This document shows positions 11,965 to 63,382 of a stretch of 64,000 nt of DNA, piece by piece (the first letter of the stretch is position 1; every line of letters begins with the position of its first letter). Under the pieces are notes generated by a model, which worked only from the letters and a program-made list of their open reading frames with translations, was not told where the DNA came from and did not search any database. The translations under genes and the position numbers were made by a program. Origin of the DNA: a virus; IMG/VR virus record IMGVR_UViG_3300027974_000020, positions 96,001-160,000 of that record, one strand, 5' to 3'.

Positions 11965-12047
11965 TCAGTTAATCAACTAAGAAGGCTCTTCCATGGTAGT
12001 GCATGGGAGAGCTTTCTTTTTTATGGCTAGGTATAAGACATCTAGCT

Positions 12048-12148: not shown

Positions 12149-12164
12149 AATAAGGAGGTAGCTT

Positions 12165-12449: not shown

Positions 12450-12553
12450 GTAAGTAATAAAGAAAGATACCCTGGGGTCTTCGGACCCTGGGGTTCTTTT
12501 TTTATGACTAGGACAAAGGTCTTATGTCAATACTCTCTAGGAGGGGAGTAGAT

Positions 12554-46424: not shown

Positions 46425-47177
46425 ATGAGCGAGAATTCATATTCTCAAAGCGATGATGATCTTTTCGATTACGATCCTTCTATCGAAAAACCAAAAGAAC
46501 AATTATATAATCCGGTTTCAGATATTAAATCAGATAACACACTTCTTAGTGATTTATCCCGGAATATAAAAAATAATGATGACCAAACTTTTGATGGTCA
46601 CACGGAAATACGTGTAAAATTAGCTGAAGCAATTCTTGGTTCTTACGACAAATGGATTAATAACGCTAGTTCTGTAGCCTATTTTAGCACCTTAAACACA
46701 ATGCTTGACGAACTAACAAATGGTCGTTTTAGTGTTATGTATTTCTATAACACAATAGAACAAAAGATACTTCGTCGGATTAATATTAACACTTTAATAG
46801 GTGAATCTTTTATTGTTAAAAATGACAACACTAAAGATAGTTTAAAAGATTTCTTAGGCAGAATAGGCATCTCTTATGATGGCCCTTATCTTTCAACCTA
46901 TGTAGGAACATTGGTTAGAATATCTAATCACATTCTTATACGGGAAAGAGCAATGTATCTTTCTTTGTCTGAAAGACTTCAGCTTCCTTGTAATCCTTTA
47001 ATTTCTCAAGATAGTCCAAACTTTGAAGAAGTTATTGCACTAAGCCAATTTACTGTTACTGATCAACAAGAGAAAATTATTCAAAATCAATTTATCCATA
47101 ATTCTGACGAATACTTTTTAGAAAAACTTAACAATATTAATTTATCTAATATTAACTTTAAAATTAGATCTATATGA
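46425..47177 (+). CDS. Hypothetical protein
   Basis: 250-aa ORF. Confidence 0.75.
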   Translation: MSENSYSQSDDDLFDYDPSIEKPKEQLYNPVSDIKSDNTLLSDLSRNIKNNDDQTFDGHTEIRVKLAEAILGSYDKWINNASSVAYFSTLNTMLDELTNGRFSVMYFYNTIEQKILRRININTLIGESFIVKNDNTKDSLKDFLGRIGISYDGPYLSTYVGTLVRISNHILIRERAMYLSLSERLQLPCNPLISQDSPNFEEVIALSQFTVTDQQEKIIQNQFIHNSDEYFLEKLNNINLSNINFKIRSI

Positions 47178-47623
47178 ATTCAAAATTTAAGTCTATTTTT
47201 ATGTTAATAATTACAGCTTCAGCCCTTGCTGCGATAAATTATACTATTGTTCATTCACCAACAGTATTTATTATCACTGCTGTACTTATTGCTCATGAAT
47301 TGGGACATTATTTTGCTGCTATTTCTAATGGCGCAAAAGCAGACATCCCATATATTATACCTTTTCCATTTTTTGGAATAGGAATAACAAGAATTAAAAA
47401 CTTTAAAAAATTAGATCCACAGGTTAGAAAGTCCATACTTCTGTTTGGACCTACTGCTGGTGTATTTACTGCTATTATAATTTTATTATTGTCTTTTATA
47501 ACTTCTCTTATAACTCCAATTTCAATTTTAATTATAGCATTGTTTGAAATCTTGTTTAATTACTTTGGTTCTGACGGAAAAAAGTACCGTCAAGCTGAAA
47601 AAGATATAGTGTTTGCTGCTTGA
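47174..47623 (+). CDS. Site-2-protease (M50)-like membrane metalloprotease
   Basis: HELGH in TM segment, FGP, SDGK motif. Confidence 0.75.
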   Translation: MNSKFKSIFMLIITASALAAINYTIVHSPTVFIITAVLIAHELGHYFAAISNGAKADIPYIIPFPFFGIGITRIKNFKKLDPQVRKSILLFGPTAGVFTAIIILLLSFITSLITPISILIIALFEILFNYFGSDGKKYRQAEKDIVFAA

Positions 47624-48251: not shown

Positions 48252-49334
48252 TTGAAAGGTTGCAGCATAGTGAATTCTAAAGCTGATTATACATTCGTCC
48301 AGGAAAATGATTCTATTGTTTTTCGTTCTAAAGTAAAGTCGTTTGATCTTGATCATGTTACCGATAAAGATTTAGCGTCTTTTTATTTTAGCTTCTCTAA
48401 ATATGCCACTATGGATACAGGTTTACTTCCCCTTGATGGAACAGGTCTTCTTGGTATACGTAAAGCCGGCGATCATACTCAGGTGATATACCAGCATAAG
48501 CCTGGTACATATTACGTTAATTGGGGCCAGTACGAAAGAGATGTTAATGCTAAAAAATATTATCTTGCTCAACCTTATAGAATTATAATTGTAGATTTTA
48601 TCAATGACAATTTACTAGGTGCAAGAACTTTTTATTCCCCAATCCCAGCTACACATCCGGATATCCCTTTGTACCATGTTAATCTTCCTAACATAAATTG
48701 CAGAGGATATCGAGGCAATGCTGTTGGTTGGATTTGCTTGTATCACAATGAAGATTGGTCTAATCTTCCATTTAACGAAAGACTTGTAAAAGCTATTGAT
48801 CGCTGTTCTGGCACAGAAGCTTACAATGATGGAAACATGAGTGAGACTGATGGTCCAGGTTTTTATCGTGATCACCATAGAGATAATTCTGATTACCAGT
48901 ATTTGTGGAATCCACAAGAATGGGAGAGAAAAACTTCTCAAGAAGGTTTTCTTTGGACCTTAGATGAAGATGCTTGGATTCCAGTTCATGTTGATTCAAT
49001 TGATTCACAATCTCAACACAATCCAAAAGGAGAAGTTCTTACTCTTAAGATGGCTATTTTTGGAAATTATAAAGCCTATTATGACGATCAATATATTCCC
49101 AAACCAATTAATGCAATTCAACGTAATGAATTTAACAATGGAATTAAATTAATAACCAGTTGGTTTACACGAGCTTTTGTTACTGCAAAAACTAAGTATA
49201 GTGGTTTAGATTTATTTTCTGAAAGTTCTAAAGTTAGACAAGAAAATATTAAAAATGTTTATGATCTTCAAACTGAACACGAAGAAGATGAACCAGATGA
49301 AGATCACAACGAAGATGACGAAGGACCATTTTAG
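48252..49334 (+). CDS. Prokaryotic E2-like (UBC-fold) protein 1
   Basis: TGLLP, LAQPY, LYHVNLPNIN...GWICL (PN...G.IC with Cys); directly upstream of JAB-E1-Ubl. Confidence 0.7.
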   Translation: MKGCSIVNSKADYTFVQENDSIVFRSKVKSFDLDHVTDKDLASFYFSFSKYATMDTGLLPLDGTGLLGIRKAGDHTQVIYQHKPGTYYVNWGQYERDVNAKKYYLAQPYRIIIVDFINDNLLGARTFYSPIPATHPDIPLYHVNLPNINCRGYRGNAVGWICLYHNEDWSNLPFNERLVKAIDRCSGTEAYNDGNMSETDGPGFYRDHHRDNSDYQYLWNPQEWERKTSQEGFLWTLDEDAWIPVHVDSIDSQSQHNPKGEVLTLKMAIFGNYKAYYDDQYIPKPINAIQRNEFNNGIKLITSWFTRAFVTAKTKYSGLDLFSESSKVRQENIKNVYDLQTEHEEDEPDEDHNEDDEGPF

Positions 49335-49398
49335 TTCTTTAAAATCTAAATATAGAATTTCTTAATAATTTATTTAATTTTAATATGAAAGGAATGTT

Positions 49399-51153
49399 AT
49401 GTCTCAAGTAACTATGGACCAATTAAAACATTTTTGGATGCCCTCAGGGGTCCCATGTTTTATCGCAGATCGTTCAGACATCTGCGACTTAGTAGAGGGT
49501 ATGGGTTTCCAAATTTATTACCTTTTGGCTAATGATATTAAAGAAACTAAAGTAACACCTAATACTGCTCACCAAGGAAAATCTTATGGATATGGTGCAA
49601 CTACATATACTTATAATTCTCCAGCCGCTCCTCCACCTCCAATCATTACAAAAAATACAAAATTATTTAAAGTAGTTAATAATTTTGTTGGAAGATCAAT
49701 AGCTATTTCCGCCGACCCTATGCCAGATGAGTTTTTGTCAATTAACGAATCTTGCGAATACTGCATGCCCCCAATTCCTAATGTAATCATTGATAAACTT
49801 GATCAATTCTTTAGACTTGTTCATAGTCAACATGGTACAGAATCAATTGTTATTCTTACTTACAATATGAATGCAACTGGCTCAGAAGGTTGGGGCGTTC
49901 TTGTTCCAGATCAAACAAACACTCCAGCACATTGCAAATACGATGCTGACAGCATTGCTGAATTAAAACCTGAAGATGTTATGATTGTCGGATCTGTTCA
50001 TAGCCATCCAGAAATGAGTGCTTATGCTTCTGGCACAGATCATGCAGACCAAGCAGATTTTGATGGTTTACATATTACTTATGGTTGGCAGAAGTCTCAA
50101 AACAATGGTGCAACTCAGTACCATCTTGAACTTCAAATGTCTGGTCAAAATTATATTCTTAAACCAGAAGATGTTTTTGAAGATATTTCACTTTTAAAAG
50201 ATCCTGATCCAGACGTTGTAGAATGGTCCAATAAAGTAAAAAAAGTTCACCCCCCGTATTCAGCGGGGGTCCCGTCACAAATAACTCAGCAACAATTTCA
50301 GGCTACCCCTCAACGAGCTATACAACAAACGGCTGGGGACTTTAAATCTTTTCACAGTAGTACCCCTCAAATGCAAGAGGCACTATTGAATTTAAAGCTT
50401 CCCTCAGATGCTATTGTTGCTATTGAAATTCAACTTGAATCAGACAATAAAAGCTCTTGCCCATGTTGTGAATATGAAATTGATATTCATGATGTAAACA
50501 GTGGAGCTTGTACTGTTTGTGATATTCCTTTAGTTTCTACTACTGATTCTATAAATCAAATGTGTTTAAAAATTCATGATTATATTTCCAAAAGAAAGAT
50601 TAGTCATACTTCAGCAGTATATCTTTGGGGTTACGATGATAAAGACACCAGAGATTTTATTATAAACATTACTGAAGAATATGAATTTCATGCTTCTAAA
50701 TATTCTACTAGTTATTTAGATTTAGGTAATTCCGTTGTACCGGTTACTTCTTCTCACTGGGATTATTGGAGAGATGACGTTGATGATGATGACTTTTTAT
50801 TCAACAGTCTTCAGCATGCAACTGCCTGTTGCAACACTCCGATGACTAATGCTCACAGCCAATGCGAATGTCCTGTTATGCTGTTTAAAGAAGATTTAGT
50901 TGATTTTGATATTTATGTAAATAAAATAGAATCTGACATATATAGTTATGACGGAAATTGTTTTAATTGTTCATATTATCACACTACTGAATGCCCTGCT
51001 TTCTACAGTTTAGTTTCTGCATTTGTAACTGATAAAAGTAAATTTCTTTTAGATGAAAACACTCCTAAGATAACTGATTGTTCAAAATTTAAATTTTTTA
51101 CTTACGAAGATGAAAGTTTACAAAATCAAACTATTGATATAACAAAAGAATAG
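49399..51153 (+). CDS. JAB/MPN+ metallopeptidase with C-terminal Cys-rich zinc domains
   Basis: TESIV (Glu), VPDQ, GSVHSHPEMSAYASGTD (HxH-x7-S-xx-D); multiple CxxC. Confidence 0.88.
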   Translation: MSQVTMDQLKHFWMPSGVPCFIADRSDICDLVEGMGFQIYYLLANDIKETKVTPNTAHQGKSYGYGATTYTYNSPAAPPPPIITKNTKLFKVVNNFVGRSIAISADPMPDEFLSINESCEYCMPPIPNVIIDKLDQFFRLVHSQHGTESIVILTYNMNATGSEGWGVLVPDQTNTPAHCKYDADSIAELKPEDVMIVGSVHSHPEMSAYASGTDHADQADFDGLHITYGWQKSQNNGATQYHLELQMSGQNYILKPEDVFEDISLLKDPDPDVVEWSNKVKKVHPPYSAGVPSQITQQQFQATPQRAIQQTAGDFKSFHSSTPQMQEALLNLKLPSDAIVAIEIQLESDNKSSCPCCEYEIDIHDVNSGACTVCDIPLVSTTDSINQMCLKIHDYISKRKISHTSAVYLWGYDDKDTRDFIINITEEYEFHASKYSTSYLDLGNSVVPVTSSHWDYWRDDVDDDDFLFNSLQHATACCNTPMTNAHSQCECPVMLFKEDLVDFDIYVNKIESDIYSYDGNCFNCSYYHTTECPAFYSLVSAFVTDKSKFLLDENTPKITDCSKFKFFTYEDESLQNQTIDITKE

Positions 51154-51164
51154 GAGTAAATTAC

Positions 51165-51926
51165 ATGACTGATAATAAACGTTTTGTTGTCATTGGTGCT
51201 GGCGGAATAGGCACTTGGCTTATCGCTGGTCTTGTTAGGCTCTTGGAATGGAAACTTCCTGGTTCAGGTTTAATTATAGTTGATGGTGATAACTATGAAG
51301 AGAAAAATAAAGAGCGTCAAGATTTTGGAAAATTAGGTAATAAAGCAGTTGTTAAAGCAGCTGAACTTACTTCTCAATTTCCTTCTACCACTATTATTCC
51401 AGTTCCTAAATGGGTTGTTTCTGACGAAGATACGGGTGTATCTGCAGATGACGATGCACCAAGGATTAAAGCATCTCAGCTTATCCGCGAAGACGATGTA
51501 GTGTTTGCGGTAGTAGACAATTTTGCAGCACGGAAGATTCTATTTGATGCAGCCGCTAAATTAGACAATATTGATGTTTTTACTGGCGGCAATGATGATT
51601 TATTGTTTGGTTCTGTTTATCATTATCAAAAAAGAAACGGTATACAAGTAACAGAACATCCCGTTACGTTTCACCCTGAATACGAGAATCCACCAGATAA
51701 AAATCCTGGTGAACTTTCTTGTCAAGAAAGATCTAAACTTGAAGGTGGCACTCAGCTATTGGCTACAAACATGGCTGTTGCGTCCTTTATTTTAGGAAGA
51801 GTCCATAAGACAATAGTGCTAGATCAAAGTCCTGACGAGACCGAAATCTATTTTGACTTAGGACTTGGTAAAGCTGAACCATACAACAGAACAGTTTCTC
51901 AGGTTACACAACCTGTGATGATATAA
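51165..51926 (+). CDS. ThiF/MoeB-family E1-like activating enzyme
   Basis: GAGGIG, DGDNYEEKNKERQ, NKA, VDNFAAR, candidate catalytic ELSCQE. Confidence 0.92.
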   Translation: MTDNKRFVVIGAGGIGTWLIAGLVRLLEWKLPGSGLIIVDGDNYEEKNKERQDFGKLGNKAVVKAAELTSQFPSTTIIPVPKWVVSDEDTGVSADDDAPRIKASQLIREDDVVFAVVDNFAARKILFDAAAKLDNIDVFTGGNDDLLFGSVYHYQKRNGIQVTEHPVTFHPEYENPPDKNPGELSCQERSKLEGGTQLLATNMAVASFILGRVHKTIVLDQSPDETEIYFDLGLGKAEPYNRTVSQVTQPVMI

Positions 51927-51942
51927 AAAAAGGAGATATAAC

Positions 51943-52194
51943 ATGGATCAATCATCCAATCAACAGCAGCCATCTGCTGGAAATGGAATGGCAAACGTTA
52001 GATTTGGCGTTTACAATCAACCAGGCAATATCGCTGGTAAGTCTGTAAAAGACGCTAGAGACCAGTTTTCACGCCTTTGGGGAATTCCTCAAGATGCAGT
52101 TGCCTACAAAGGCAAAGATAAACTCGACGAAAACTATGTCATTCAAGCAGGCGACAACGTGGAATTCCACCGTCGTGCCGGCGAGAAGGGTTAA
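51943..52194 (+). CDS. Ubiquitin-like (beta-grasp) protein
   Basis: 83 aa; GKSV..AR..F...IP..AVA....LDENYVIQAGDNVEF; free C-terminal Gly (AGEKG). Confidence 0.82.
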   Translation: MDQSSNQQQPSAGNGMANVRFGVYNQPGNIAGKSVKDARDQFSRLWGIPQDAVAYKGKDKLDENYVIQAGDNVEFHRRAGEKG

Positions 52195-52209
52195 TTAGTT
52201 TTTAAGATC

Positions 52210-52258
52210 GTGGGGGAATCCGTGCGCCTTTCTCATGGGTTCCCCCACACATTTTTTT
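52210..52258 (+). terminator. Intrinsic terminator after Ubl gene
   Basis: GTGGGGGAA...TTCCCCCAC followed by T7. Confidence 0.7.
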
Positions 52259-52291
52259 ACAAGGCACTGATCTATTCATAGAAAGAATATT

Positions 52292-53893
52292 ATGCTCTTT
52301 AATCAAATAAAATTAGGCTATCCATCTTTATGGATTAAATCAACAGAGTTTGATAGATTAATTAATTCAATTGTTCAATATAATTTTAGAGAGTATTTTA
52401 CAATTGATACTGAAAAAGGATTTTCTCAGTACATTGATGGATCTTGGAAACCAGTTCTTGTAGACATTCCAGATCCAGAACAGGGTGGGACTATATTAAC
52501 TACCCCATTTGATTTGTCTTTGTGTTACGAATATATTAATAAATATATTGAATCTTCTAATAAACAAGTTAGTCTTATTATTAAAGTTTTTGGCAAGCCT
52601 GAATCAATAATGAATTATGTTCCTTTAATATCATCTCTCCAATCCAAGCACCGTAATATGTTTTGGAGTGATGAAATTGCAAGCTATCCTCAAATTATAT
52701 TTTTATCTTCTTTTGATGTTCCAGAAGATTATTCTTATTTATTTAAATCTTCTAATTTTGCATTTCCAAACGCGCAAGAATTATACCAAATCATTGATCA
52801 TATTAATGTTTCTTCTGAAGGCAAGTTTGTTGCTCAAGATTCTATTAAAGAAGTAGTTAGATCTGGTTTAGGTCTTAATGAATCTGAATTTATAGATTAT
52901 TGCTTACAGTCTGTAGTCGAAAATGGAACTGTTGATCCTAAATATATTTATGATAATAAAATGCGTTCCATTAAACAGCATGGAATTCTTGAAATTATTA
53001 AGCCAACAATGTCTTTTGATAACATTGGTGGTTTAGATAATATTAAAGACATAATCAGAAGAACTGCTTTTCTACGCGCAAATAAAGATCAAGCTGATAA
53101 GTTCGGGGTAGTTCCAATCCGCAGAGTATTGATGGTGGGTATACCTGGTACTGGTAAATCTGCTATTTGTCAAGCTACTGCTAACGAGCTTCAACTTGAC
53201 CTTGCTAGAACTGGTATAAGCCAAGTAATGAATTCTTTTGTTGGTCAATCAGAAGCTAATATGCGTGCAGTATTTAATCAGATTAAAGCAATGAATCCTC
53301 TTTGTGTTTGGATTGACGAGTTTGGTCGCGACCTTTCTGGTGGTGCTTCTTCTGCTTCTGTTGACGCTGGCACTACAGACAGAGTTCATGGTGAGTTTTT
53401 GACTGGTCTTCAAGAGTTGCCAGAAGAAACATTTTTGATGTGTGCTGCCAATCAATTGGATAATCTTCGTCCAGAAATGTTACGCGCAGATAGATTTGAT
53501 AAGATTATATTTGTTGGTATGCCTTCGCTTAATGAGAGATTAGATATTCTCAAAATTTATCTTAAAGAGATCAACACTGATCACCAATTTGATTATTATG
53601 CTCTTGCAGAATCAACTGAATATTTTACCGGTGCAGAAATTTCTTCTTTAATTCGAGAAGTAAAATTCTTTGTTGTTTCTCAAGATTTTAGACCTATTAA
53701 TACTCAAGATATTATATCTTATGTTCCAAAAATTAGAAATACAATTTGGAACAAACACAGAGACATGGTTCAGTCTATGTATCAGTTCGCTCTCGAACAA
53801 TGGGACTGGGCCTCGACAGAACAATATAATGATGCTAATATGATTATATCTGGCAGATCTTCGGTATCCCCTGAAGTATCTTGGAAAATATAG
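52292..53893 (+). CDS. AAA+ ATPase (Ycf46/CDC48-like; one intact and one degenerate domain)
   Basis: IGGLDNIK, GIPGTGKS, CVWIDE, AANQ, PEMLRADRFD, FTGAEI. Confidence 0.9.
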   Translation: MLFNQIKLGYPSLWIKSTEFDRLINSIVQYNFREYFTIDTEKGFSQYIDGSWKPVLVDIPDPEQGGTILTTPFDLSLCYEYINKYIESSNKQVSLIIKVFGKPESIMNYVPLISSLQSKHRNMFWSDEIASYPQIIFLSSFDVPEDYSYLFKSSNFAFPNAQELYQIIDHINVSSEGKFVAQDSIKEVVRSGLGLNESEFIDYCLQSVVENGTVDPKYIYDNKMRSIKQHGILEIIKPTMSFDNIGGLDNIKDIIRRTAFLRANKDQADKFGVVPIRRVLMVGIPGTGKSAICQATANELQLDLARTGISQVMNSFVGQSEANMRAVFNQIKAMNPLCVWIDEFGRDLSGGASSASVDAGTTDRVHGEFLTGLQELPEETFLMCAANQLDNLRPEMLRADRFDKIIFVGMPSLNERLDILKIYLKEINTDHQFDYYALAESTEYFTGAEISSLIREVKFFVVSQDFRPINTQDIISYVPKIRNTIWNKHRDMVQSMYQFALEQWDWASTEQYNDANMIISGRSSVSPEVSWKI

Positions 53894-53901
53894 GAGTTAA
53901 A

Positions 53902-54522
53902 ATGGATTTTGAAAACATCGATGAGTTTATAGAAACGGTTGAACAACCAACTGTAACAGATACTCTACAAAAAGAATACGATAAAGACCTTTATAAAAAA
54001 TGGTTTCGTTCTAAAACTCAGAGTGGATTTTTGTCCATTAAGCCTTGGTATCAGGGTTTAAAATTTAAAGTTGATATTGGCAAAACTTCTATCGATGGCA
54101 AATTATTGTCTAGCACAATGGTTTATTTAGACGCTATAGATTTTTCTGCTTATCTTAATTCTGTTGCTAATGGCACTGGTAAATTAAATTATATTCAGAA
54201 TGATAAAAGTGGTGTACCAACAACTGAAGGATTTGTATCTTACGGTGGCGGCATTATAGAATCAAAGCCTATATCAAGAATATTTAAATCTCATTACTGG
54301 CAGAATTCAGACCAGTCTTATGATGATTCTGCTTTTGTATGGAAGTGCGGTCATTTTGCTGCTCGAAAAACTGAATCAGGAGCTTTTATACCAGACATGA
54401 AAACATCTCTGTCTGTAGATAGTATCAAAGTTACAAGAGCTGAACTATGCAGCATTGCAAATATTATTAACCTATCTTTAATATCTCATGTTACCAATAA
54501 GTCTGATTGGTACGCAGTATGA
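53902..54522 (+). CDS. Hypothetical protein
   Basis: AGGAG RBS before ATG 53902. Confidence 0.8.
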   Translation: MDFENIDEFIETVEQPTVTDTLQKEYDKDLYKKWFRSKTQSGFLSIKPWYQGLKFKVDIGKTSIDGKLLSSTMVYLDAIDFSAYLNSVANGTGKLNYIQNDKSGVPTTEGFVSYGGGIIESKPISRIFKSHYWQNSDQSYDDSAFVWKCGHFAARKTESGAFIPDMKTSLSVDSIKVTRAELCSIANIINLSLISHVTNKSDWYAV

Positions 54523-54887
54523 TTTACGATAACGATAATGATACTCTCCAGGCTACTTTAAACACTATGCTTGATACTTTAAATAAAACTGTTCAAAATT
54601 CTTTTTCTGATTTAGACAATCGTATTGAATCTTTAGAAAAACAAATGGCTACTTTAGTATTGGCTTACGGCGAGCAAGCTGTTTTTATGGAAGCTTTAAT
54701 TTCTCAAATTTCTTTTGCTTCTGAACAGGCTCAAAAGTCTTTTCATGAGACTCTTAAAGAAGCTAGAAAGTCTATGTTAGAGGTGATGAAAGATGGAGCA
54801 GAAAATCTTGTGGCCCCAAGCGATCCAGTCCTTGGACAAGCCATTGTCAATATGGCTTCTGAAAAGTTATCTGACATTAATAAATGA
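54519..54887 (+). CDS. Coiled-coil hypothetical protein
   Basis: ATGA overlap. Confidence 0.7.
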   Translation: MIYDNDNDTLQATLNTMLDTLNKTVQNSFSDLDNRIESLEKQMATLVLAYGEQAVFMEALISQISFASEQAQKSFHETLKEARKSMLEVMKDGAENLVAPSDPVLGQAIVNMASEKLSDINK

Positions 54888-55076
54888 TAACGAATGTGCT
54901 CTGTTTGTTGACAAGCAAAATTACGAGTTACTGAATAGTTTCGAGTATTTATCTAAAATATATGGGTGTGCTAAACAAGTTTACCCTTCTTTTAAATCAA
55001 TGCATTTTATTAATTCAAACTTTTTAGAACATCTTAGATCAAATAAAATAGAACTATATTCAATAGAGGTCCTTTA

Positions 55077-55799
55077 ATGTCAATTATATCTTCTCCAATA
55101 TCTAAAGCTGATTTTAATGAATTGTACACTCAACGGATACAAAATTATAATCAGTTATTAAAGCTTAATCCTGTTACATATTTTGCTGCTTCTGTAGGGT
55201 CTCGTTCCTATCTTAGGATGCTTGTTTCTGGACAAGCACAGGATCATGTTCCGGAAACTCTTAGACAATCAGAAATTGAAGTTATTTTAAATCATATAGA
55301 TAAAGGTAGAACTGTTACTCCATTAGCTATTGAAAAGATTATAAATGAATATCCCCATGTACAGGTTGATCATTCTGGCCAATATGTATTTCCTGGAGAT
55401 ATAGAAGAATTTTCTTCGACATTTTTTCCCGGTATGCTTCCATCTATAAATAAAGTTATTATTGAACATTTGTTATTTAATAAAGTTATAAACGTTTTTG
55501 GTTCTTCAGCAAAACGATTTTTATTACTTAAAAATTACGATATTTCTGATATATCAATTACCGTAATTCAAAATAAAATAAATTCATGTTCTTATGATAA
55601 ACAAAGCTATGATAATTATTCTAATGTTTTAGAAAAGTATATCGCTACCATTGATGAATCATTAAAGAATTATCAGGTCGATCAACAGTATTTACTTGAT
55701 ATAGTTGATCGTTTATCTAAACGTGTTTTTGAACTGGAAACTGCTTTGGAAACTCAACAAAAAGAAGGTGTCAGTGGATATCTTCTCAGTTGGCATTAA
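55077..55799 (+). CDS. Hypothetical protein
   Basis: 240-aa ORF. Confidence 0.75.
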   Translation: MSIISSPISKADFNELYTQRIQNYNQLLKLNPVTYFAASVGSRSYLRMLVSGQAQDHVPETLRQSEIEVILNHIDKGRTVTPLAIEKIINEYPHVQVDHSGQYVFPGDIEEFSSTFFPGMLPSINKVIIEHLLFNKVINVFGSSAKRFLLLKNYDISDISITVIQNKINSCSYDKQSYDNYSNVLEKYIATIDESLKNYQVDQQYLLDIVDRLSKRVFELETALETQQKEGVSGYLLSWH

Positions 55800-55822
55800 A
55801 TTGAAAGGTATTTATAAAAACT

Positions 55823-57070
55823 ATGGATTCATTTACTAATAAAGAATATTATCAAAAAATACTTCAGTATTTTTATTCTAAAAAAACTGCTCAATATCAA
55901 TTAATCCCATCGGAAAAAATAAACACAAAGGTATGTCAATTAAGTGTTTCTTTGCCCGATATTCCACCGTTTACATATGGTGTCATGCTTAACGGCAGAG
56001 AGAATTTATCAGATAACCACATTGTTATTTGGGATGTTTTTAATACTGGTGAGTTTTATGTCAGCGATGGAGTTTACAATGCTGTAACTTACTTTAAGGG
56101 ATTATTTCCTGTATTTTATATTCATAATCTTAGTGATCAAAATACTGGTGTTTTTAATCCAAGTTTAGGAAATTCTTCTGCTGATTCACCAATTGCTCAA
56201 AATATAGGAGAAAAAACTTTTATATATTATAGATATAAAGATAATAATTATGATGGTTGGGCTTTTACCTGGACTTCATTGTTCAGTAATGAACCAATAG
56301 ATCCTACAGATTTTTCAGATAGTGATGAAAACAATTCTCAACTTGAAATTCCATTTGAAGTTGATAGCAATATAGACGTTAACAATGTCAGCAACGATAT
56401 CTTAGCTAATCTTTTCTCTGCGCTTTCAACTAACCAAAGTGCTTCTATGACAAATGAAAAGATTACTAAATTAATTAAAACTATCAAAATTGGCAAACAA
56501 GCTAAAAATCTTTTGTCTCAAATAGATGAACTTTCTTCTGATTCTAAGAGTTCATCTTCTTGTATTTGTTCTAATTTTACTTGTGTATCAAAATCTTCTT
56601 CTATAAATATAGTTTCAAAAGATCATGCTTTTGCTAATGCACCAGAGGGGTTTAGTTATTGTTCACACAAAAATGCAGAAAAGTCCTTTAACGGAACTGT
56701 TGCAGTTTGTGCTTGGCCCACTGGTAGCCAGCCTAGATGTTCTTTGTATAGTCCAAAAACTGAATTAGTTGAAAGAAGAAATTCTTTAGATACTTTTGGG
56801 AATATTTTATATGATTTTGAAGTTTCATTAAATACATTATCTAATTTTGATAATGTTATTTTTATTAAAAATATGATTAACAATGAAGTTGTTAATACAA
56901 TTACTTACCCAGCCAATGCTAAAAAAGAAGATGTAATAGCTGAATCTATTCGTGTTCTTGAAGAGTTAATTTTAGCTTGGACAGATCTTCCTCAAGAAAA
57001 TAAAAATATTATTTTTCCACAAGTTGAGTCTAGACCAAAGAAAGAAAGTTATATACTTTCATTGGCATAA
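55823..57070 (+). CDS. Hypothetical protein with Cys cluster
   Basis: 415-aa ORF. Confidence 0.75.
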   Translation: MDSFTNKEYYQKILQYFYSKKTAQYQLIPSEKINTKVCQLSVSLPDIPPFTYGVMLNGRENLSDNHIVIWDVFNTGEFYVSDGVYNAVTYFKGLFPVFYIHNLSDQNTGVFNPSLGNSSADSPIAQNIGEKTFIYYRYKDNNYDGWAFTWTSLFSNEPIDPTDFSDSDENNSQLEIPFEVDSNIDVNNVSNDILANLFSALSTNQSASMTNEKITKLIKTIKIGKQAKNLLSQIDELSSDSKSSSSCICSNFTCVSKSSSINIVSKDHAFANAPEGFSYCSHKNAEKSFNGTVAVCAWPTGSQPRCSLYSPKTELVERRNSLDTFGNILYDFEVSLNTLSNFDNVIFIKNMINNEVVNTITYPANAKKEDVIAESIRVLEELILAWTDLPQENKNIIFPQVESRPKKESYILSLA

Positions 57071-57082
57071 GAAAGGTTTAAT

Positions 57083-58600
57083 ATGATAAATATCTTAAAT
57101 TACGATAGTCAGTATACTGAGTTGGTTACTCTTAATTTTACTAAATATTCTGAAGATTATTGTTACGTAAAAGATTCATATTACCATAATACAAGAAGTA
57201 TTCTTCCTTCTATTTTTAATCTTTTTATAGATGCTAGTTATCAAGTTCCAACTCGTTATATAGATCACGACAGGTCTATGAAGAGTACAATTGTTAATCC
57301 GAATAGTTTGTATCCTATTGCTGTTCGGTATGTAACTACAGATAATGTTTACGTAATTGAACGACCTCCTTTTAAGCTATCTGTTGATTTTAAAAATTCT
57401 CGAGCTGCTCATAATTCTCCAAAAGTAGAACCTGTTGAAATTTGGATTCCTTGGACTGTAATGGTTCTTCCTTGGAATCAAGTAGTTAATGGTGATCCTA
57501 GCAATTTAAGACTCTATTTTAATGATGGTCCAATACAATCCTTAGATGATTGTGTAGTAGCACCTTATCTTCCTAATTCTTATTCAGATGGAAGAATATG
57601 CTGGTCTCATTCTTATAATCAGCTCTTAACTCAGCTTAATGTTTCTGAACCAAATACTGTAGATGTTAATTATTTATATTCCTCTATACTTAATGATTAT
57701 TTAATGGGTGGATGGAACACGGATCTAAATTTTCATTATCGTTATCTTCAGTATAGAGATTCTCACACATTTAATGCACAACTTGAATCTAACAATTATC
57801 CAATGATTTCTTTATTTGTTGATACATTAAAAACAAATTTAGATTTTTCAAATAAAGTTAGGTCAATTCTTGAAAGTAAGTTTGGATTAACTAAACGCAG
57901 AAGTCTTTCTTGTGTTGATGGTTCTATAATAAAAGATAAAAATAATGTTCCTTGTTCTAAAGATATATACCTTAAATTATTTGCTTTTATGTCTGCAGCG
58001 TCTCTTTCTGATACTCTTGCTTTTGTTTCTGAACTAAAAAGTATTTCACATTCTTCAAAAAGTATTTATAATAAAAAAAATACTATTTTAGAAATATCTT
58101 CCGTTAATCAAAATGCACACAATAATGATGATAGCATTACTTTATTAGCTTCTACATCCCCGATTAGAAGTGCCGCTGTTAATAATTCTATAGACCCAGA
58201 ATTGCGAACAATGAATGCTATCGTAGTTTATGCTAAAGATTATACTCCTGAGGAATCTGGATTTGTATCTTATGCTTCAAGAAGAGGTGATAATCTTGAG
58301 GCTATTTTAAGTGCGGATTTTGCATCGGAAAGTGATTTGCATGAGCTTATATATTTGTCAATGTATAAATTATGTAAACATAGATATAGTTATGAAACAC
58401 AAGATGAGCATAAGCCTTTTGTTGTTGTTATAAATGGTAACACTGGGACATTATCCATATATGATACTGACTATTTAGATGTTTTATTTTCTCAAGTATC
58501 CAGTAGAATAAAAGAATCTATGTCTAAAAACACTCATTTGAAATCTAATATTCGTGTATCAACCTATGTTGAACAGCATCTAAAGGAGCAAAATGCTTGA
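57083..58600 (+). CDS. Prokaryotic E2-like (UBC-fold) protein 2
   Basis: VIERPP, IWIPW, APYLPNSYSDGRICW, WNTDL. Confidence 0.72.
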   Translation: MINILNYDSQYTELVTLNFTKYSEDYCYVKDSYYHNTRSILPSIFNLFIDASYQVPTRYIDHDRSMKSTIVNPNSLYPIAVRYVTTDNVYVIERPPFKLSVDFKNSRAAHNSPKVEPVEIWIPWTVMVLPWNQVVNGDPSNLRLYFNDGPIQSLDDCVVAPYLPNSYSDGRICWSHSYNQLLTQLNVSEPNTVDVNYLYSSILNDYLMGGWNTDLNFHYRYLQYRDSHTFNAQLESNNYPMISLFVDTLKTNLDFSNKVRSILESKFGLTKRRSLSCVDGSIIKDKNNVPCSKDIYLKLFAFMSAASLSDTLAFVSELKSISHSSKSIYNKKNTILEISSVNQNAHNNDDSITLLASTSPIRSAAVNNSIDPELRTMNAIVVYAKDYTPEESGFVSYASRRGDNLEAILSADFASESDLHELIYLSMYKLCKHRYSYETQDEHKPFVVVINGNTGTLSIYDTDYLDVLFSQVSSRIKESMSKNTHLKSNIRVSTYVEQHLKEQNA

Positions 58601-59720
58601 TACAATCAGTGTTGTAACTGTTAATTCCCCTTATAATTCAATATATTCTGTTGCTAAAGTTGTTACTCAATATGGCAGTGAGTATGTTTTGAATCAAGAG
58701 CAGACAAGAGATTATTTACTTAATCATTATTCTTTGGGATATACTACTTTTTCTTCTCATTCTAAACCTACTGGCCTTATGCCTCCTGGTGTAAAGGCTA
58801 TTTTCCCTAATGTAGTTGTTTTTGAGCGTCCGCCAACTTATCAGAATGTATTCTATATTGCAGATACAGTATCTGAACGAATGTCTGAAGAACAACATGT
58901 TTATAGAGTTGCTCTTCCTTGGCAGCTTTATGTTGCTGTTTATAATTCTGATTTTTATTTAACTAATGTTTATATGTATTTTATGGATGCGCCTCTTACT
59001 TCTATACAGCAGAATATTTATGCTCCAAACATTCCCAATTTCTTTGCAAATGGATTATTGTGTAGGCCTAATTTTTCAACAATGGATGAAGTAGAAAGAT
59101 ATTCAAAAGATGTTTCTGGTATTATTCATTCTACTTTTGATTGGGTTTGGAATAACGGAACCAATCACGATTTAACTGAATCAATGGTTCTACTTCCAAA
59201 ATATACTAAAGATCTTTCTACTACAGTAATCGGTGGCTTACCTATATCTGGTCATTATTTTGATAAAAGCTACTGCAATGGTTATAAGCTTTCTGTAGCA
59301 CAAGTTAAAACAGCTTTTGCTTCTTGGGAAAAAATTGAAATTAAAGATATTTTAAATTATAAATGGGTTTCTCCATCTACCCAACTTCATGATGTCAACA
59401 GTGATAATTATATGTCTTCTATTCAAGAGTCTGCTCCTTATTCTGATAATGTTTATAGTTGGTTATCTGACCATTATTCCGATGAAGATGAAGACGATAT
59501 TATTAATAGAATGGATAATGGAGAATATGATATAGCTGAATATATTTCTTATCTTATAGATAATAATTATGTTTCTCCTCCATTTAATAAAAGAGCTGAT
59601 TTTTCTTATGAGCAAATGTTAAATGTTATTTTTTCAGAAAACAATACTTTAAGAAGAAAAACAGTAGGTATTTTGTCTGATATTAAAAAAATAACTGAGA
59701 TACTTCAACCTGTTTCTTGA
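58593..59720 (+). CDS. Prokaryotic E2-like (UBC-fold) protein 3
   Basis: TGLMPPG, VFERPP, VALPW, APNIPNFFANGLLC, TNHDL. Confidence 0.72.
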   Translation: MLDTISVVTVNSPYNSIYSVAKVVTQYGSEYVLNQEQTRDYLLNHYSLGYTTFSSHSKPTGLMPPGVKAIFPNVVVFERPPTYQNVFYIADTVSERMSEEQHVYRVALPWQLYVAVYNSDFYLTNVYMYFMDAPLTSIQQNIYAPNIPNFFANGLLCRPNFSTMDEVERYSKDVSGIIHSTFDWVWNNGTNHDLTESMVLLPKYTKDLSTTVIGGLPISGHYFDKSYCNGYKLSVAQVKTAFASWEKIEIKDILNYKWVSPSTQLHDVNSDNYMSSIQESAPYSDNVYSWLSDHYSDEDEDDIINRMDNGEYDIAEYISYLIDNNYVSPPFNKRADFSYEQMLNVIFSENNTLRRKTVGILSDIKKITEILQPVS

Positions 59721-59780
59721 CACATTTTTCTTTTAATGCTACTATATATAGATATATAAACTTAAATAAAGGTAGATAAA

Positions 59781-60075
59781 ATGGTCAAAAATGCTATTAC
59801 CGAGCCAATATTTAATAGGTCCGAAGTTGCTCAAATTCTTAATGTATCTACTTTAACCGTTTCTAATAGGGAAAAAAATCGGTAAATATCCTCAAGCTAA
59901 AAGAGATTTAAATAATTATAGAGTATATACTCTAAATGATTTATTTAATCTTCAATTAATTACATATAGTCATGTAGATCCCAAGCCTATTATATCTATA
60001 TTGTATGACAAAGGATATCAAAATATAAAAGTCTTGGGTCAAATGATTGATGATATCTTATCAAAGAGGGTGTGA
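59781..60075 (+). pseudogene. MerR-type HTH gene split by a one-base frameshift in an A7 run
   Basis: Frame 1 RSEVAQILNVSTLTVSNREK; shifted frame continues IGKYPQAKRDLNNYRVYTLNDL; A-run at 59872-59878. Confidence 0.75.
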
Positions 60076-60320
60076 TGGACAAAGAACGTTCTAATTCAGA
60101 GTCATACAGTTTAGTAGATGAAGTCCCCGAAGAAATATCGACTGATGTTATAACCGACCTTAAATCAGGTATTTATAATTTATTTATATCATTATACAGT
60201 CACCTCGTAATTGATTTTGGTGTTGACGAAGCAGTCAATCAATCAACTGCTTTTATCGACGACATATCACTAAACTTTAAACAAATAACCAATAAAAACA
60301 CAGAAAGCCAAACAACATGA
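60072..60320 (+). CDS. Hypothetical protein
   Basis: Coupled to neighbours. Confidence 0.65.
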   Translation: MMDKERSNSESYSLVDEVPEEISTDVITDLKSGIYNLFISLYSHLVIDFGVDEAVNQSTAFIDDISLNFKQITNKNTESQTT

Positions 60321-60760
60321 TAGATCCAAAAAACATAATAAATATTACCGGTGGAGTCGTTGCTGATCCAGAACTAGTAAACGATGGAAAGATTGCTAAC
60401 TTTACCCTTGCAGTTGACTACGCTGGTTCAGAAAAAGGCTCTGATAACAATACAGGTTATTTTGATATAGTTTACTACCTCAAAGATGGAAGTGCTTTTG
60501 CTAGCAAAAATGCATCTTTTATTCATAATCAAATTTCTGAGTCTAAAATCAAAAAAGGTGCTAGACTTTCAATTGTTGGTCGCGTAGTCCAGCAACGTTG
60601 GAAACAAGATGACAAAACTAGAACTAAAATAGTTATCATTGCAGAGCACATTGCTTACGCAGTCACGTCAGGTGCAAAGCCAGCAAATGGTTCAACTACT
60701 TCTTCAGATGCAAAAGAAACAACTTCTGCTTCAGCCGCTTCGGTTCCAGATAGCTTTTAA
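60317..60760 (+). CDS. ssb: Single-stranded DNA-binding protein
   Basis: ITGGVVADPEL, FTLAVD, KKGARLSIVGRV.QQRW, tail PDSF. Confidence 0.88.
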   Translation: MIDPKNIINITGGVVADPELVNDGKIANFTLAVDYAGSEKGSDNNTGYFDIVYYLKDGSAFASKNASFIHNQISESKIKKGARLSIVGRVVQQRWKQDDKTRTKIVIIAEHIAYAVTSGAKPANGSTTSSDAKETTSASAASVPDSF

Positions 60761-61494
60761 TGGAAGAAGAATTTGACGAAGCGTATTTAGCTTCTTTAAT
60801 TGAAGAAGCTTTAGGCGATAAAGGCAATAACCAAATGCATCCGTCTTCTGGCATGCATCTTGGTTTTGCCGAGTCGAATTTGATGTCTTTGGTTTATGAT
60901 AAATTAACTAAGTATTTTCCTGAGTCTAATTTAAATTCTTTTTTTCAAGATTTTAGATCTGATTTAACATCAAGAAAAGTTTCTTTGTCTATCAAAGAAT
61001 TGCATACTATAACCAAAAATTGCAAGAAGTGTTCTTTACTTTCGGCTGCAGAGCTTCCAAAATGGAATGTTGTAGATCCTGATGTTTTAATAATATTAGA
61101 ATCTCCAAATATACAATCGGATGCTGTAGATCTCTTGGTTAAAAAAATAAAATCAATTGGATTTACGTCTTCACAGATGTGTTTGACCTATGTCAATAGG
61201 TGTCCAAAATATGGTAAGTATGAAAATAAAGAAATAATTAATTGTTCTCCTTATTTGCATAACGAAATACAATTACTTAATCCCAAAGTCATTGTGCCAA
61301 TGGGTTCTTTAGTTACATCTGTTTTATTAAATTCAGACATAAAAATTAAGGACTATCGTGGTAATTTAGTTTGGCTAGGACATTGGCCTATAGTACCAAC
61401 GTATTCTCCTTCATATGCTTTGCGCTCTGGTTCAACCGCGCTGCAGAGTTTTGAAAATGATTTATCTTATGTTTATAAATTTATAAATACATGA
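60760..61494 (+). CDS. Uracil-DNA glycosylase family 4-like protein
   Basis: CKKC, LTYVNRCP, NCSPYL..EIQLLNPKVIVPMG, PTYSPSYALR; GEAP motif is ESP. Confidence 0.75.
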   Translation: MEEEFDEAYLASLIEEALGDKGNNQMHPSSGMHLGFAESNLMSLVYDKLTKYFPESNLNSFFQDFRSDLTSRKVSLSIKELHTITKNCKKCSLLSAAELPKWNVVDPDVLIILESPNIQSDAVDLLVKKIKSIGFTSSQMCLTYVNRCPKYGKYENKEIINCSPYLHNEIQLLNPKVIVPMGSLVTSVLLNSDIKIKDYRGNLVWLGHWPIVPTYSPSYALRSGSTALQSFENDLSYVYKFINT

Positions 61495-61504
61495 CAGGAA
61501 AAAT

Positions 61505-61879
61505 ATGACATTACATACTATCTACAATAGAAATGAATTATCTGCATTTGAAGCTTTAGTCACTAAAGATGTTAAATCTCAAATATCTGATTCAGAGATG
61601 GATACACTTGTTCTAAACATTGATAAGTGGTTATATTGTTTATATGTAATGAAGAGAGATGTGGAATATTATCTTTCTTCTAGAGTTTCTACCAGAAAAA
61701 TTTCTACACAACAAATGAAAGATAGATCTGCTCCCCAAGAGGAGCTGACTGTTTTTCTTGCTTCTGAATCTCTTTGGAAAGTTAATACTTTAAAGTTTTT
61801 AAATTCTTTAGAAAAGAAGATTTTGTTTGTTAAATTTTTATCTAAAGAATTATCTAATTCTAAAACATTAGAAGCTTAA
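61505..61879 (+). CDS. Hypothetical protein
   Basis: ORF with RBS. Confidence 0.7.
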   Translation: MTLHTIYNRNELSAFEALVTKDVKSQISDSEMDTLVLNIDKWLYCLYVMKRDVEYYLSSRVSTRKISTQQMKDRSAPQEELTVFLASESLWKVNTLKFLNSLEKKILFVKFLSKELSNSKTLEA

Positions 61880-62332
61880 ATGTCAGAATCACTTCTTCAT
61901 ACTCCAGAACTATTGTTTTCAATAGATTCTACTGTAGATGAAGAATCTTCCTATAATTTAGTTTCTTTGTATAGGTCTACTTTTATTCTAAATAATTATT
62001 ATGATTCAAAAGAATATACTTTAGAACAAATTTTGTATTTATGCACACAATTTGCATTATTTTCTGGTAGAGTAAAAATTGCTTCCAAACAGGATTCTCC
62101 CACTATAGCCTCTAAAATACCTTTAGAGGTTTTTAGATATAAGATGTTAGATGATGGTTCTTGGTATTATGCTAAAACCACACCTAGAAATCATAAACCT
62201 GGATATATAGTAGAAGGTGCTCTATGGACAAATGGCATGTTCTATTTAACCAGAACTGAAGATACTAAACAGATTTTAGAAGCCACTCTATCCGTTGATC
62301 AATATACAAAGGATTTACACGGTTACCCATGA
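61880..62332 (+). CDS. Hypothetical protein
   Basis: Abuts neighbour. Confidence 0.7.
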   Translation: MSESLLHTPELLFSIDSTVDEESSYNLVSLYRSTFILNNYYDSKEYTLEQILYLCTQFALFSGRVKIASKQDSPTIASKIPLEVFRYKMLDDGSWYYAKTTPRNHKPGYIVEGALWTNGMFYLTRTEDTKQILEATLSVDQYTKDLHGYP

Positions 62333-62589
62333 CAATTAAAACAACTTTTTACCGGTCGAGTTCATTTATTACGAATGTCTCTTGGGACGATGATACCGAA
62401 ACTTTACTTGTACAGTTTATCAGCGGAACTACTTGGTTATATCATGATGTACCTCAAGATACGTACAACCGTTTAGTTCGTTCTCCTTCTGTCGGACAAT
62501 TTTTTAATAAAAATATTAGAGACAAATATCCAAGCGAAGTAATAAATAGAGCATCTCAGCAGGTGGTGAAAAATGGGGAAGAAAAATAA
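62329..62589 (+). CDS. KTSC domain protein
   Basis: SSFITNVSWD...LLVQF.SG..W.Y.DVP...Y..L..SPSVGQFFN..IR. Confidence 0.88.
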   Translation: MTIKTTFYRSSSFITNVSWDDDTETLLVQFISGTTWLYHDVPQDTYNRLVRSPSVGQFFNKNIRDKYPSEVINRASQQVVKNGEEK

Positions 62590-62773
62590 AAATAAACGTT
62601 TTAAAAACTATGGTTATAATTATAGAAACCAGCATTTCTATGAGAATTTTTCCACAAATACCACTGGTTATATCGCTAAATCAGACCAAATAAATAAAAT
62701 TGCTTTAGAAGTTTTTGGTTCTTTACATTTTCAAGTCACTGCAGAAGACTAGAATATCTGCTATAATGTTATT

Positions 62774-63382
62774 ATGACTACCATAGTTGCCCTCCAAGGT
62801 GACGGCTTTGCTTTAGTTTCTTGTGATTCCCGTATATCAGATGTAGACAGTAGCGGTTATATTTCACAAGTTAGCACCTTAAAAGAAGGTACTGCAAAGG
62901 TTGCTTTAAACGGCAAATATCTTTTGGGTGCTGCTGGCGATCTTAGGGCAATAAACATTCTTCATCATGCCTTTACTCCTCCTCCACCACCTGCTGGAAT
63001 AAAGGGTAAGAAACTCGATCAGTTTTTTACTGTTAAGTTTATTCCTGCACTTCGTGAATGTTTTGAATCTCAAGGCTATGCTACTCCAGACAAAGACGAG
63101 AAAATGCATATGGCTGAACATGATTCATTATTGATTGTTGCTGTATGCGGGAATATTTATGTTGTTGACGGCGATTATTCTTGGCTATCTGATACATCCG
63201 GAGTCTATGCTCTTGGTAGTGGTTCTTCTTATGCTCTTGGAGCATTAACCGCGTTAATGCCAAAGACTGCACTAACGGTGCAAACAGCAAAAAAAACCGC
63301 ACTTAAAGCAATGAGTATAGCTTCTAGATTTGACCCTCACACTGGATCTCCATTTCATACTTTTGTTCAGGAAAATCAATAG
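62774..63382 (+). CDS. Proteasome-beta/HslV-like Ntn threonine peptidase
   Basis: MTTIVA (N-terminal Thr), DSR, K, GAAG, ALGSGS.YALGAL, D..TG. Confidence 0.88.
   Translation: MTTIVALQGDGFALVSCDSRISDVDSSGYISQVSTLKEGTAKVALNGKYLLGAAGDLRAINILHHAFTPPPPPAGIKGKKLDQFFTVKFIPALRECFESQGYATPDKDEKMHMAEHDSLLIVAVCGNIYVVDGDYSWLSDTSGVYALGSGSSYALGALTALMPKTALTVQTAKKTALKAMSIASRFDPHTGSPFHTFVQENQ

Follow-up and report, generated by a model that had tools for sequence, protein, structure and literature searches.

Organization of the gene block

The window analyzed here is a stretch of 64,000 nucleotides, bases 96001-160000 of the 169-kb virus record IMGVR_UViG_3300027974_000020 in IMG/VR, for which CheckV gives a completeness of ~80%. 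It carries a block of genes for a putative ubiquitin-like conjugation system, made up of a ubiquitin-like protein (Ubl), an E1-type activating enzyme, a JAB protease and three E2-like proteins, together with an AAA+ ATPase. An initial annotation, prepared from the sequence and its open reading frames (ORFs), had described these genes and a downstream peptidase as an apparently complete conjugation and proteolysis system. All eight of its ORFs were confirmed on the + strand, with the coordinates given below.

The block starts with E2a (48252-49334, with a possible start at 48270), which codes for a divergent E2/UBC-like protein recognized by family motifs and profile homology. It is followed by the genes of a JAB/JAMM metallopeptidase (49399-51153), a ThiF-type adenylating enzyme of 253 amino acids (aa) referred to as E1 (51165-51926), a Ubl tag of 83 aa identified by its invariant C-terminus (51943-52194), and an AAA+ ATPase of the Cdc48-D2 type (52292-53893). 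Two further E2-like genes on the same strand, E2b (57083-58600) and E2c (58593-59720), each encode an E2/UBC-like N-terminal domain joined to a variable C-terminal half; E2c was recognized by its fold model and invariant residues, and E2b as its paralogue. Genes are closely spaced between E2a and E2c, with intergenic gaps of 64, 11, 16 and 97 nt and then overlaps, and a gap of 351 nt comes after E2c. The eighth gene, encoding an HslV-type N-terminal nucleophile (Ntn) Thr peptidase (62774-63382), lies beyond this gap.

The Ubl and its predicted complex with E1

Four libraries were scanned directly, Pfam, PHROGs, PADLOC and NCBIfam. The E1 matches ThiF at 8e-13. Its best NCBIfam model is PRTRC_ThiF (5.6e-6, far under the cut-off of that model), the Cap2 E1-E2 models of PADLOC are matched at 4e-5 over the E1 part only, and there are weak matches to ThiF, MoeB and UbaA models. 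The closest sequence of solved structure is UBA5 (7.5e-4). Across 29 orthologues there is no variation in the GxGxxG nucleotide loop, the D..N..RQ motif or Cys186, and identity across the 28 sister orthologues in the alignment is 52-85%. When the E1 protein was compared with plasmids, only two weak Clostridium ThiF matches were returned.

The Ubl has a disordered N-terminus, a core of ~68 aa and a C-terminal end, ...EFHRRAGEKG, whose last residue is Gly83. It matches no model in the four libraries. Its homologues (n = 128) are 80-96 aa long and none has a Pfam domain, and the C-terminus EFHRR[AS]GEKG is invariant across them and forms the protein end in almost all, which agrees with the C-terminal Gly of the initial annotation. 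Variable short or long unrelated tails extend past the Gly in four homologues, the pattern expected for a modifier whose terminal Gly has to be freed by a protease. No longer, fused forms of the Ubl came up in a search aimed at them, which is weak evidence.

The initial annotation had proposed modelling of the E1-Ubl pair as a check. The complex predicted in the presence of ATP has an ipSAE value of 0.70 (0.66-0.73 between runs), compared to 0.00 for the best of three controls; in the calibration of this score, 58 of 80 solved complexes came up to this level, as did 2 of 110 mismatched pairs. The predicted local distance difference test (pLDDT) values of the partner chain are 88-90, and the runs agree in at least 89% of the contacts. 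Residues 76-83 of the Ubl are predicted to contact residues 13-16 of E1 in the GxGxxG loop, residues 116-120 in the Asp118 region, and residues 140-144. The model thus supports binding, with the Ubl tail placed in the adenylation pocket of E1. It should be mentioned that this result may reflect likeness to known complexes, since the ThiF-ThiS and MoeB-MoaD complexes have already been solved. Together, the invariant Gly and the predicted complex point to a ubiquitin-like modifier with a processable C-terminal Gly recognized by E1.

Three E2-like paralogues

The three E2-like proteins are related to each other. E2b and E2c align in BLASTP at 5e-10 and in hhalign with a probability of 99.3 (E 1e-20), and E2a aligns with E2c in hhalign at an E-value of 2e-5 over 105 columns, ending at a common L-P-N motif. 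Each family has one invariant Cys, located after a P-N motif. In 27 orthologues of E2b the invariant residues are E93, R94, P95, P96, W121, P123, W124, N165, C173, W211, N212 and D214. The Asn and Cys are N165/C173 in E2b and N149/C157 in E2c, and the spacing of 8 in both is the same as in the canonical HPN...C; the His of HPN is not conserved. Among 44 members of the E2a family, down to 29% identity, the sole invariant Cys is C162, alongside N147, G159, W160 and Y164, and neither C150 nor C185 is invariant. The E2a motif is P-N147-x-N ... G-W-x-C162-x-Y, and its N147/C162 spacing implies an insert of 7 residues. The family has 203 representatives at 50% identity and a sharp score boundary. 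A conserved Asn followed by a Cys is therefore found by sequence conservation in E2a, E2b and E2c, in each of which the Cys is the predicted catalytic residue.

In the model of the N-terminal domain of E2c, the core has pLDDT values of 88-97. A helix at residues 35-52 precedes six strands within residues 67-131, the Cys loop, and helices at 165-168 and 174-187. An unbiased search of this model against 48,161 chains returned E2, UEV, RWD or UFC1 folds for ~37 of the top 40 matches, including E2S (Z 5.6 over 104 residues), UBE2W, UbcH5c, Cdc34, Ubc13, BubB and the E2 of CBASS (an antiphage signaling system based on cyclic oligonucleotides). The strength of this line of evidence for a predicted UBC fold is the purity of the match list, not any single score. 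In a protein-language-model Atlas, E2c is located near clusters of Prok-E2_D in 30 of 30 matches, with 75-78% of the members annotated as such; the clusters nearest to E2a have Prok-E2_D in 13-20% of their members. Matches of the E2c model in BFVD are all uncharacterized phage proteins, one of them from Acinetobacter phage vB_AbaM_ME3.

The Prok-E2_D profile itself, PF14460, finds nothing in the genome of this phage even at an E-value of 10. Of 32 sister genomes, 17 have matches to it, at 11.6-22.1 bits (cut-off 25). The 10 best were mapped, and all of them fall within E2b or E2c orthologues; PRTRC_B reaches 11.8-15 bits in the same ORFs. A hidden Markov model of the E2a family had no match among PDB sequences, and Pfam searches of 34 E2a homologues gave scattered weak zinc-finger matches in C-terminal extensions only. 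With their mutual homology, the invariant Cys of each and the UBC-type matches of the E2c model, the three E2-like genes of the initial annotation are supported as mutually homologous E2/UBC-like families at the level of sequence and predicted fold. The fold check suggested there succeeds for E2c and is weak for E2a taken alone.

In most relatives (L011-L057), E2a continues at its C-terminus into a Cys-rich stretch of 115-350 aa that contains many CxxC pairs. The E2a of the window, like those of its nearest relatives (L009 and L010), is without this extension and retains an acidic run and a terminal Pro-Phe (window 49200-49334). The lost module may be a zinc-ribbon or RING-like part for target binding.

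The JAB protease

The JAB protein matches Prok-JAB at 1.5e-6 (28.5 bits, cut-off 25) and, weakly, PRTRC_A (8.5e-5). Its closest solved sequence is an Rpn11-like protein, 6fjv, at an E-value of 0.068. The JAMM residues E148, H201, H203, S211 and D214 are invariant in 25 orthologues, consistent with a protease that probably trims Ubl precursors and removes the tag. The protein combines an N-terminal domain with a Cys-rich C-terminal half, in which a cluster of four cysteines, C354/C357/C371/C374 (CPxC ... CxxC; window 50458-50520), is also invariant in the 25 orthologues; this cluster may serve in substrate recognition or as an E3-like module. Other Cys-rich stretches are missing from the most distant orthologues (L054-L056), and the JAB proteins of the two most divergent relatives (L055 and L056) are ~150 aa shorter.

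The adjacent AAA+ ATPase

The AAA+ protein matches PF00004 (9e-24), AAA_lid_3, CDC48 (1e-37), PAN (7e-36) and phrog_8638 (1e-68), and its best matches of solved structure are Cdc48 in the D2 ring (9e-59) and archaeal VAT (1e-57). It is a single-ring ATPase of the classic type with a family-specific N-terminal domain of ~230 aa, and its sequence contains the Walker A and B motifs, a canonical pore loop that reads FVG, and Arg fingers. The gene is 97 nt behind the Ubl, and the two are neighbors in 48 of 49 related loci. The C-terminal tails of these proteins are low in complexity and variable, with a Trp or Phe nearly always present in the last 4 residues (window 53800-53893; L009-L056), for example ...SWKI, ...TWK, ...GNW and ...TSF. 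This aromatic tail may be a docking motif. Gene position alone suggests that the ATPase is coupled to tagging, and the protein is a candidate unfoldase or remodeller, plausible as an accessory of the tagging core.

Gene order, conservation and RNA-library matches

Contigs of up to 268 kb, representing 7 + 49 IMG/VR loci, share the order E2a-JAB-E1-Ubl-AAA-three conserved ORFs-(variable ORFs)-E2b-E2c; the best-conserved genes are E1, which ranks first, and the Ubl. Among the related loci the cassette is present in 49 of 49, at a fixed place in a conserved replication/early-gene region and with no patchy gain or loss. Domain matches, invariant catalytic residues and gene order thus make it well supported that the tagging core, comprising the Ubl, E1, JAB and three E2 paralogues, is real, conserved and phage-owned. 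The related phages are collinear throughout and keep SSB and UDG equally. The synteny check suggested in the initial annotation therefore holds for gene order and is uninformative on linkage; as proof of a functional link, synteny was rejected.

Contigs of 150-535 nt from RNA libraries, mostly at least 95% alike, map to the cassette genes; RNA libraries can contain DNA, the contigs are without strand information or operon structure, and uncovered bins are uninformative. Derived from four metatranscriptomic libraries of three studies, these contigs cover E2a, JAB, the JAB-E1 and E1-Ubl junctions, the AAA gene, the conserved ORFs behind it, E2c, SSB/UDG and the peptidase. Scans of the sequence for terminators and promoters gave counts at or below the shuffled expectation.

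Source phage and host

Genes in the window include a phage helicase, a UvsX-like recombinase, a protease and tRNA genes, and the phage is large and apparently lytic. Three WhiB-family genes (window 46101-46292, 28199-28396 and 39133-39330) score above the Pfam cut-off, with 67, 56 and 46 bits; one of them is just upstream of the cassette. Since Corynebacterium alone gave a WhiB signal among 14 control genomes, the host is probably an actinobacterium by this gene content, despite a GC content of ~33% across the region of interest. The initial annotation's host phylum, whose native tag is Pup, is thus a reasonable one. A host in Flavobacterium had been considered from the NCBI label 'Flavobacterium sp.' on one Ubl homologue and was dropped given the three WhiB genes; that sequence most likely comes from a phage contig placed in the wrong bin.

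Lake and freshwater metagenomes of at least 10 independent studies from 2016-2025 contain this DNA (70-100% of sampled words), and a megablast search of the region against named phages gave zero matches. The source is an uncultured lake phage of ~170-200 kb, probably with an actinobacterial host. Within a clade of ~200-kb freshwater phages, which are probably actinophages, the cassette is inherited vertically and belongs to the core features.

Comparison with known systems

The nearest known relative, as the initial annotation had indicated, is the ParB-Related, ThiF-Related Cassette (PRTRC), which is represented by the models TIGR03735 PRTRC_A (JAB), TIGR03736 PRTRC_ThiF and TIGR03737 PRTRC_B (E2-like, of the Prok-E2_D type). 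Both systems have stand-alone Ubl, JAB, E1 and E2-like genes. The phage E1 and JAB find their best curated matches in PRTRC models, and, among E2 models, Prok-E2_D and PRTRC_B alone give any match to the E2b and E2c orthologues. However, the phage scores are far below the cut-offs, with 25.9 versus 144.75 for PRTRC_ThiF, 22.2 versus 101.8 for PRTRC_A, and at most 22.1 versus 25 for Prok-E2_D. No ParB-related gene was found either, ParB_N having no match at an E-value of 0.01 or better in the 169-kb record (~80% complete). The phage has three E2 paralogues whereas PRTRC has one, and a Cdc48-like AAA+ gene adjoins the phage cassette whereas PRTRC is without an AAA gene. PRTRC is located on a plasmid or an integrative and conjugative element, in contrast to the large phage genome here. 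By profile comparison, the phage cassette is closest to PRTRC and is consistent with a distant PRTRC-like ancestry, with every PRTRC threshold missed.

We infer that PRTRC is probably the operon type 6d of Iyer, Burroughs and Aravind 2006, which has stand-alone Ubl, JAB, E1 and E2 genes and a JAB with an extra N-terminal domain (PMC1779556). The phage JAB also has an extra N-terminal domain. Our literature search found no experimentally shown function of PRTRC.

The Bil system and type II CBASS (Cap2/Cap3) use the adenylation by E1, the Cys relay of E2 and the JAB deconjugation at a C-terminal Gly that are proposed for the phage cassette. The E2 of CBASS (8hsb_B, Z 4.2) is among the fold matches of E2c, and Cap2 models match the E1 weakly. 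In CBASS, however, E2 is fused to E1 and the CD-NTase itself is conjugated, whereas the phage genes are separate; the combination of an E2-E1 fusion, a CD-NTase and an effector that defines type II CBASS is absent, and no cyclase or effector model of PADLOC was matched among ten proteins scanned. The Ubl of Bil resembles ISG15 (PMC11601596), whereas the phage Ubl is a single small domain. Both Bil and CBASS are host defences, in contrast to genes owned by a virus.

Bub (6E/DUF6527) is another diverged bacterial set of E1, E2 and Ubl, and BubB (9eav_D, Z 4.9) is likewise among the fold matches of E2c. Bub works with Ser/Tyr oxyesters and a Ser-His peptidase (PMC11601596). The phage, in contrast, keeps an invariant Cys in E1 and in all three E2s and uses a JAMM protease. 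The archaeal and eukaryotic Ub/SAMP-Cdc48/PAN-proteasome systems resemble the phage set in that a small tag ending in Gly occurs alongside a ThiF-type E1, a JAMM protease and an AAA+ protein of the Cdc48/PAN type, but the phage is without a 20S alpha/beta pair, and its sole Ntn peptidase is of the HslV type and unlinked to the cassette.

Among phages, the tail-assembly genes of lambdoid/T1 phages include TAPI, a Ubl with a C-terminal Gly, and TAPK, a JAB protein (PMC1779556). These are without E1 or E2 and lie amid tail genes, whereas the cassette described here includes E1 and E2s and lies among early/replication genes. In the cultured Bacillus cereus jumbo phage vB_BceM_WH1 (LC597490; L058 5716-8810), gp214-gp215-gp216 are ordered as E2a-JAB-E1. 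Profile comparison shows gp214 to be E2-like (E 0.0016, with matching motifs), gp215 is a weak Prok-JAB match, and gp216 is a ThiF protein with 27.8% identity. No obvious Ubl adjoins gp214-gp216, and no homologue of the cassette AAA was found in this phage. Its gp213 was tried as a relative of E2c and was rejected, having no similarity to the E2c profile. Phage peptidases and ClpP/ClpS are treated in a survey of 224 jumbo phages, which does not describe an E1/E2/Ubl cassette (PMC7824862); likewise, our literature searches found no description of such a cassette in a phage.

A proposed conjugation pathway

We propose, with a probability of roughly 70%, that the block 48252-59720 is a phage-encoded ubiquitin-like conjugation system that attaches the Ubl to proteins. 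In such a pathway, the 253-aa E1 would bind the 83-aa Ubl, adenylate Gly83 and probably load Cys186. The thioester would then be relayed to the single invariant Cys of E2a (C162), E2b (C173) or E2c (C157), and the differing C-terminal halves of the paralogues would steer the tag to different targets, presumably lysines. JAB would expose the Gly in precursor forms and reverse conjugation, and the adjacent Cdc48-D2-like AAA+ protein would most likely unfold or remodel the conjugates or the machinery itself. The thioester relay, the lysine targets, the role of the AAA+ protein and the biological purpose are drawn from the chemistry of the families. Considering that the cassette is a vertically inherited core feature, a role in the infection program of the phage itself, such as host takeover, counter-defence or control of phage proteins, is favoured over that of an accessory defence island.

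Several observations weigh against this pathway. E2a, E2b and E2c match nothing in Pfam, PHROGs, PADLOC or NCBIfam, and no curated threshold is reached; because of this lack of direct matches, the E2 call of the initial annotation rested on motifs. The beta-meander of E2c is modelled with six strands, not four, and its fold scores are modest, with Z values of at most 5.6 and a Foldseek list led by Rad6 and UbcH7 at an E-value of 0.1 or worse. The whole-protein model of E2a has a pLDDT of 70.6 and weak E2 matches only (E2S, Z 3.4; Atg10, 3.3; UbcH7, 3.2); with this model, Foldseek against the PDB returned nothing significant, and the best Z value of the wide search was 4.2. The Ubl profile has no meaningful match to solved structures in the PDB, and the beta-grasp fold of the Ubl is presumed. 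In 32 sister genomes, Prok_Ub (PF14454) gave one sub-threshold match of 16.9 bits, located in a 443-aa frame of one record, which is thus no Ubl gene. Neither an E3 nor a target was identified. The presence of the genes in RNA libraries is a weak hint of expression and cannot prove transcription. Because all related loci form one collinear clade, co-occurrence is without independent weight for function.

Relation to the HslV-type peptidase

The initial annotation had gone further and read the set as a miniature ubiquitin-proteasome pathway, in which Ubl conjugates would be passed to the Cdc48-like AAA+ protein for unfolding and then to the peptidase for degradation. The ATPase has features that would suit this role, being a Cdc48/VAT/PAN-type translocase with an intact pore loop, next to the Ubl, and with an aromatic tail end that could dock. 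The peptidase matches the HslV family phrog_1040 (6e-24), Pfam Proteasome (1.3e-6) and, under the cut-off, the NCBIfam HslV model (5e-9). Its sequence begins Met-Thr-Thr-Ile-Val, placing the Thr nucleophile right after Met with no propeptide, as in HslV, and the gene is 60-71% identical in five of five sister genomes. It is an HslV-type enzyme and not the proteasome-beta of the initial annotation; no proteasome alpha subunit is present and no HslU was found.

The context of the peptidase argues against its coupling to the cassette. The gene is 9 kb from the AAA gene, in a different module behind the 351-nt gap and the SSB, UDG and KTSC genes. Its distance from the cassette is constant in sisters because whole genomes are collinear throughout the clade, so this constancy indicates no specific link. 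HslV-type peptidases are known to pair with HslU, a member of the Clp/Hsp100 clade, not with classic-clade AAA proteins. It should be mentioned that the phage has a ClpB/ClpA-D2-like single-ring ATPase on the - strand (window 4440-5864; AAA_2, 4.8e-51; phrog_4871, 'ATP-dependent protease'), which is a second candidate unfoldase.

Homologues of the two proteins also occur apart. The closest named relative of the peptidase (49% identity) adjoins a WhiB gene in the complete 129-kb genome of lake actinophage DSL-LC01, and further relatives are found in Microbacterium phage Pumpernickel and in 41-kb Arthrobacter phages. In the three complete actinophage records searched, those of DSL-LC01, Pumpernickel and Arthrobacter phage Pitbull, there is neither a ThiF protein nor a homologue of the cassette AAA. 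Mycobacteriophages, on the other hand, have AAA homologues, and in the same phage collection the E1 query found only two records, neither of them a mycobacteriophage. The HslV-like peptidase is thus most likely an independent phage protease unrelated to the cassette, and a tag-unfold-degrade pathway is unlikely. The Cdc48-D2-type translocase stands as the candidate unfoldase that the initial annotation had named; the link to the peptidase and the complete proteolysis system are not supported. Equally doubtful is a branched, eukaryote-like network in which one E1 and one Ubl feed three E2s that differ in their target-binding halves and the Cdc48-like unfoldase reads the conjugates, possibly with the HslV-like peptidase next, so as to dismantle actinobacterial host or defence proteins beside or against Pup.

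Alternative functions of the cassette

The cassette might instead be a phage-borne defence island that, in the manner of Bil or type II CBASS, marks the proteins of rival phages for superinfection exclusion. Characterized bacterial E1/E2/JAB systems are so far all antiphage, namely type II CBASS and Bil, with the role of Bub inferred from genomic context (PMC11601596, PMC10097602), and systems of this type are often carried on mobile elements (PMC1779556). The fixed place in the replication/early region seen in every related locus speaks against such an island, and neither a CD-NTase nor another effector accompanies the genes, PADLOC giving weak Cap2 and IetA-type similarity only; a defence function is thus quite improbable. 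Least probable is sulfur-carrier or adenylation chemistry, in which the ThiF protein would thiocarboxylate the Ubl, as for ThiS and MoaD, for cofactor, thionucleoside or DNA modification: the E1 is a minimal ThiF protein without a ubiquitin-fold domain (UFD) or dedicated Cys domain, with the weak ThiF, MoeB and UbaA matches given above, and the Ubl resembles ThiS and MoaD in size and C-terminal Gly. Against this, no rhodanese was found in the genome (record ~80% complete), and where a GG end is usual, the Ubl has only one Gly, preceded by Lys. It is also conserved together with a JAMM protease and with three UBC-like paralogues that carry a Cys, and the best family matches of E1, JAB and E2 are to a conjugation-type cassette, PRTRC.

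Protein conjugation by a phage-owned system remains our preferred interpretation. In the literature searched, prokaryotic E1/E2/JAB/Ubl systems belong to bacteria and their mobile elements, and the characterized ones (type II CBASS, Bil and probably Bub) are antiphage. Here, the tagging machinery belongs to a virus and is among the conserved core features of a phage clade widespread in freshwater. If the system is active, phages as well as their hosts would be using ubiquitin-like tagging in their conflict, and its compact, Cys-based E1-E2 set, in which there are three E2 paralogues, would be suited to the study of a pre-eukaryotic branching of target specificity. It could also help to understand the uncharacterized PRTRC family. 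Annotation would gain from new family models, since every one of the proteins is labelled hypothetical and both the E2 and the Ubl families fall below present profile thresholds.

Neighboring genes and variant loci

Five ORFs on the + strand between the AAA gene and E2b have no family matches in the libraries scanned. Three of them overlap (53881-54522, 54507-54887 and 54793-55077), each start overlapping the preceding stop, and are present in 48 of 49 related loci, the ORF at 53881 being 48-76% identical; their products may be partners or substrates of the cassette. The other two (55077-55799 and 55823-57070) are fast-evolving and are detected by tblastn in 9 and 11 of the 49 related loci only. 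In the two most divergent relatives, L055 and L056, ~2.2 kb with three or four extra ORFs are inserted between the Ubl and AAA genes (10200-12490). On one 267.8-kb contig, IMGVR_UViG_3300042868_009074 (L040 and L046), the whole cassette occurs twice, in diverged copies, along with two HslV genes; the assembly may be a chimera or a concatenation of two related phages.

Two other proteases are encoded upstream in the window. A subtilase (39951-41360; Peptidase_S8, 3.9e-36) is located amid tRNA genes and is a phage protease without a link to the cassette. A small ORF two genes upstream of E2a (47174-47623) matches Peptidase_M50, a site-2 protease family, at 1.3e-8 and is kept in 32 of the 49 related loci.

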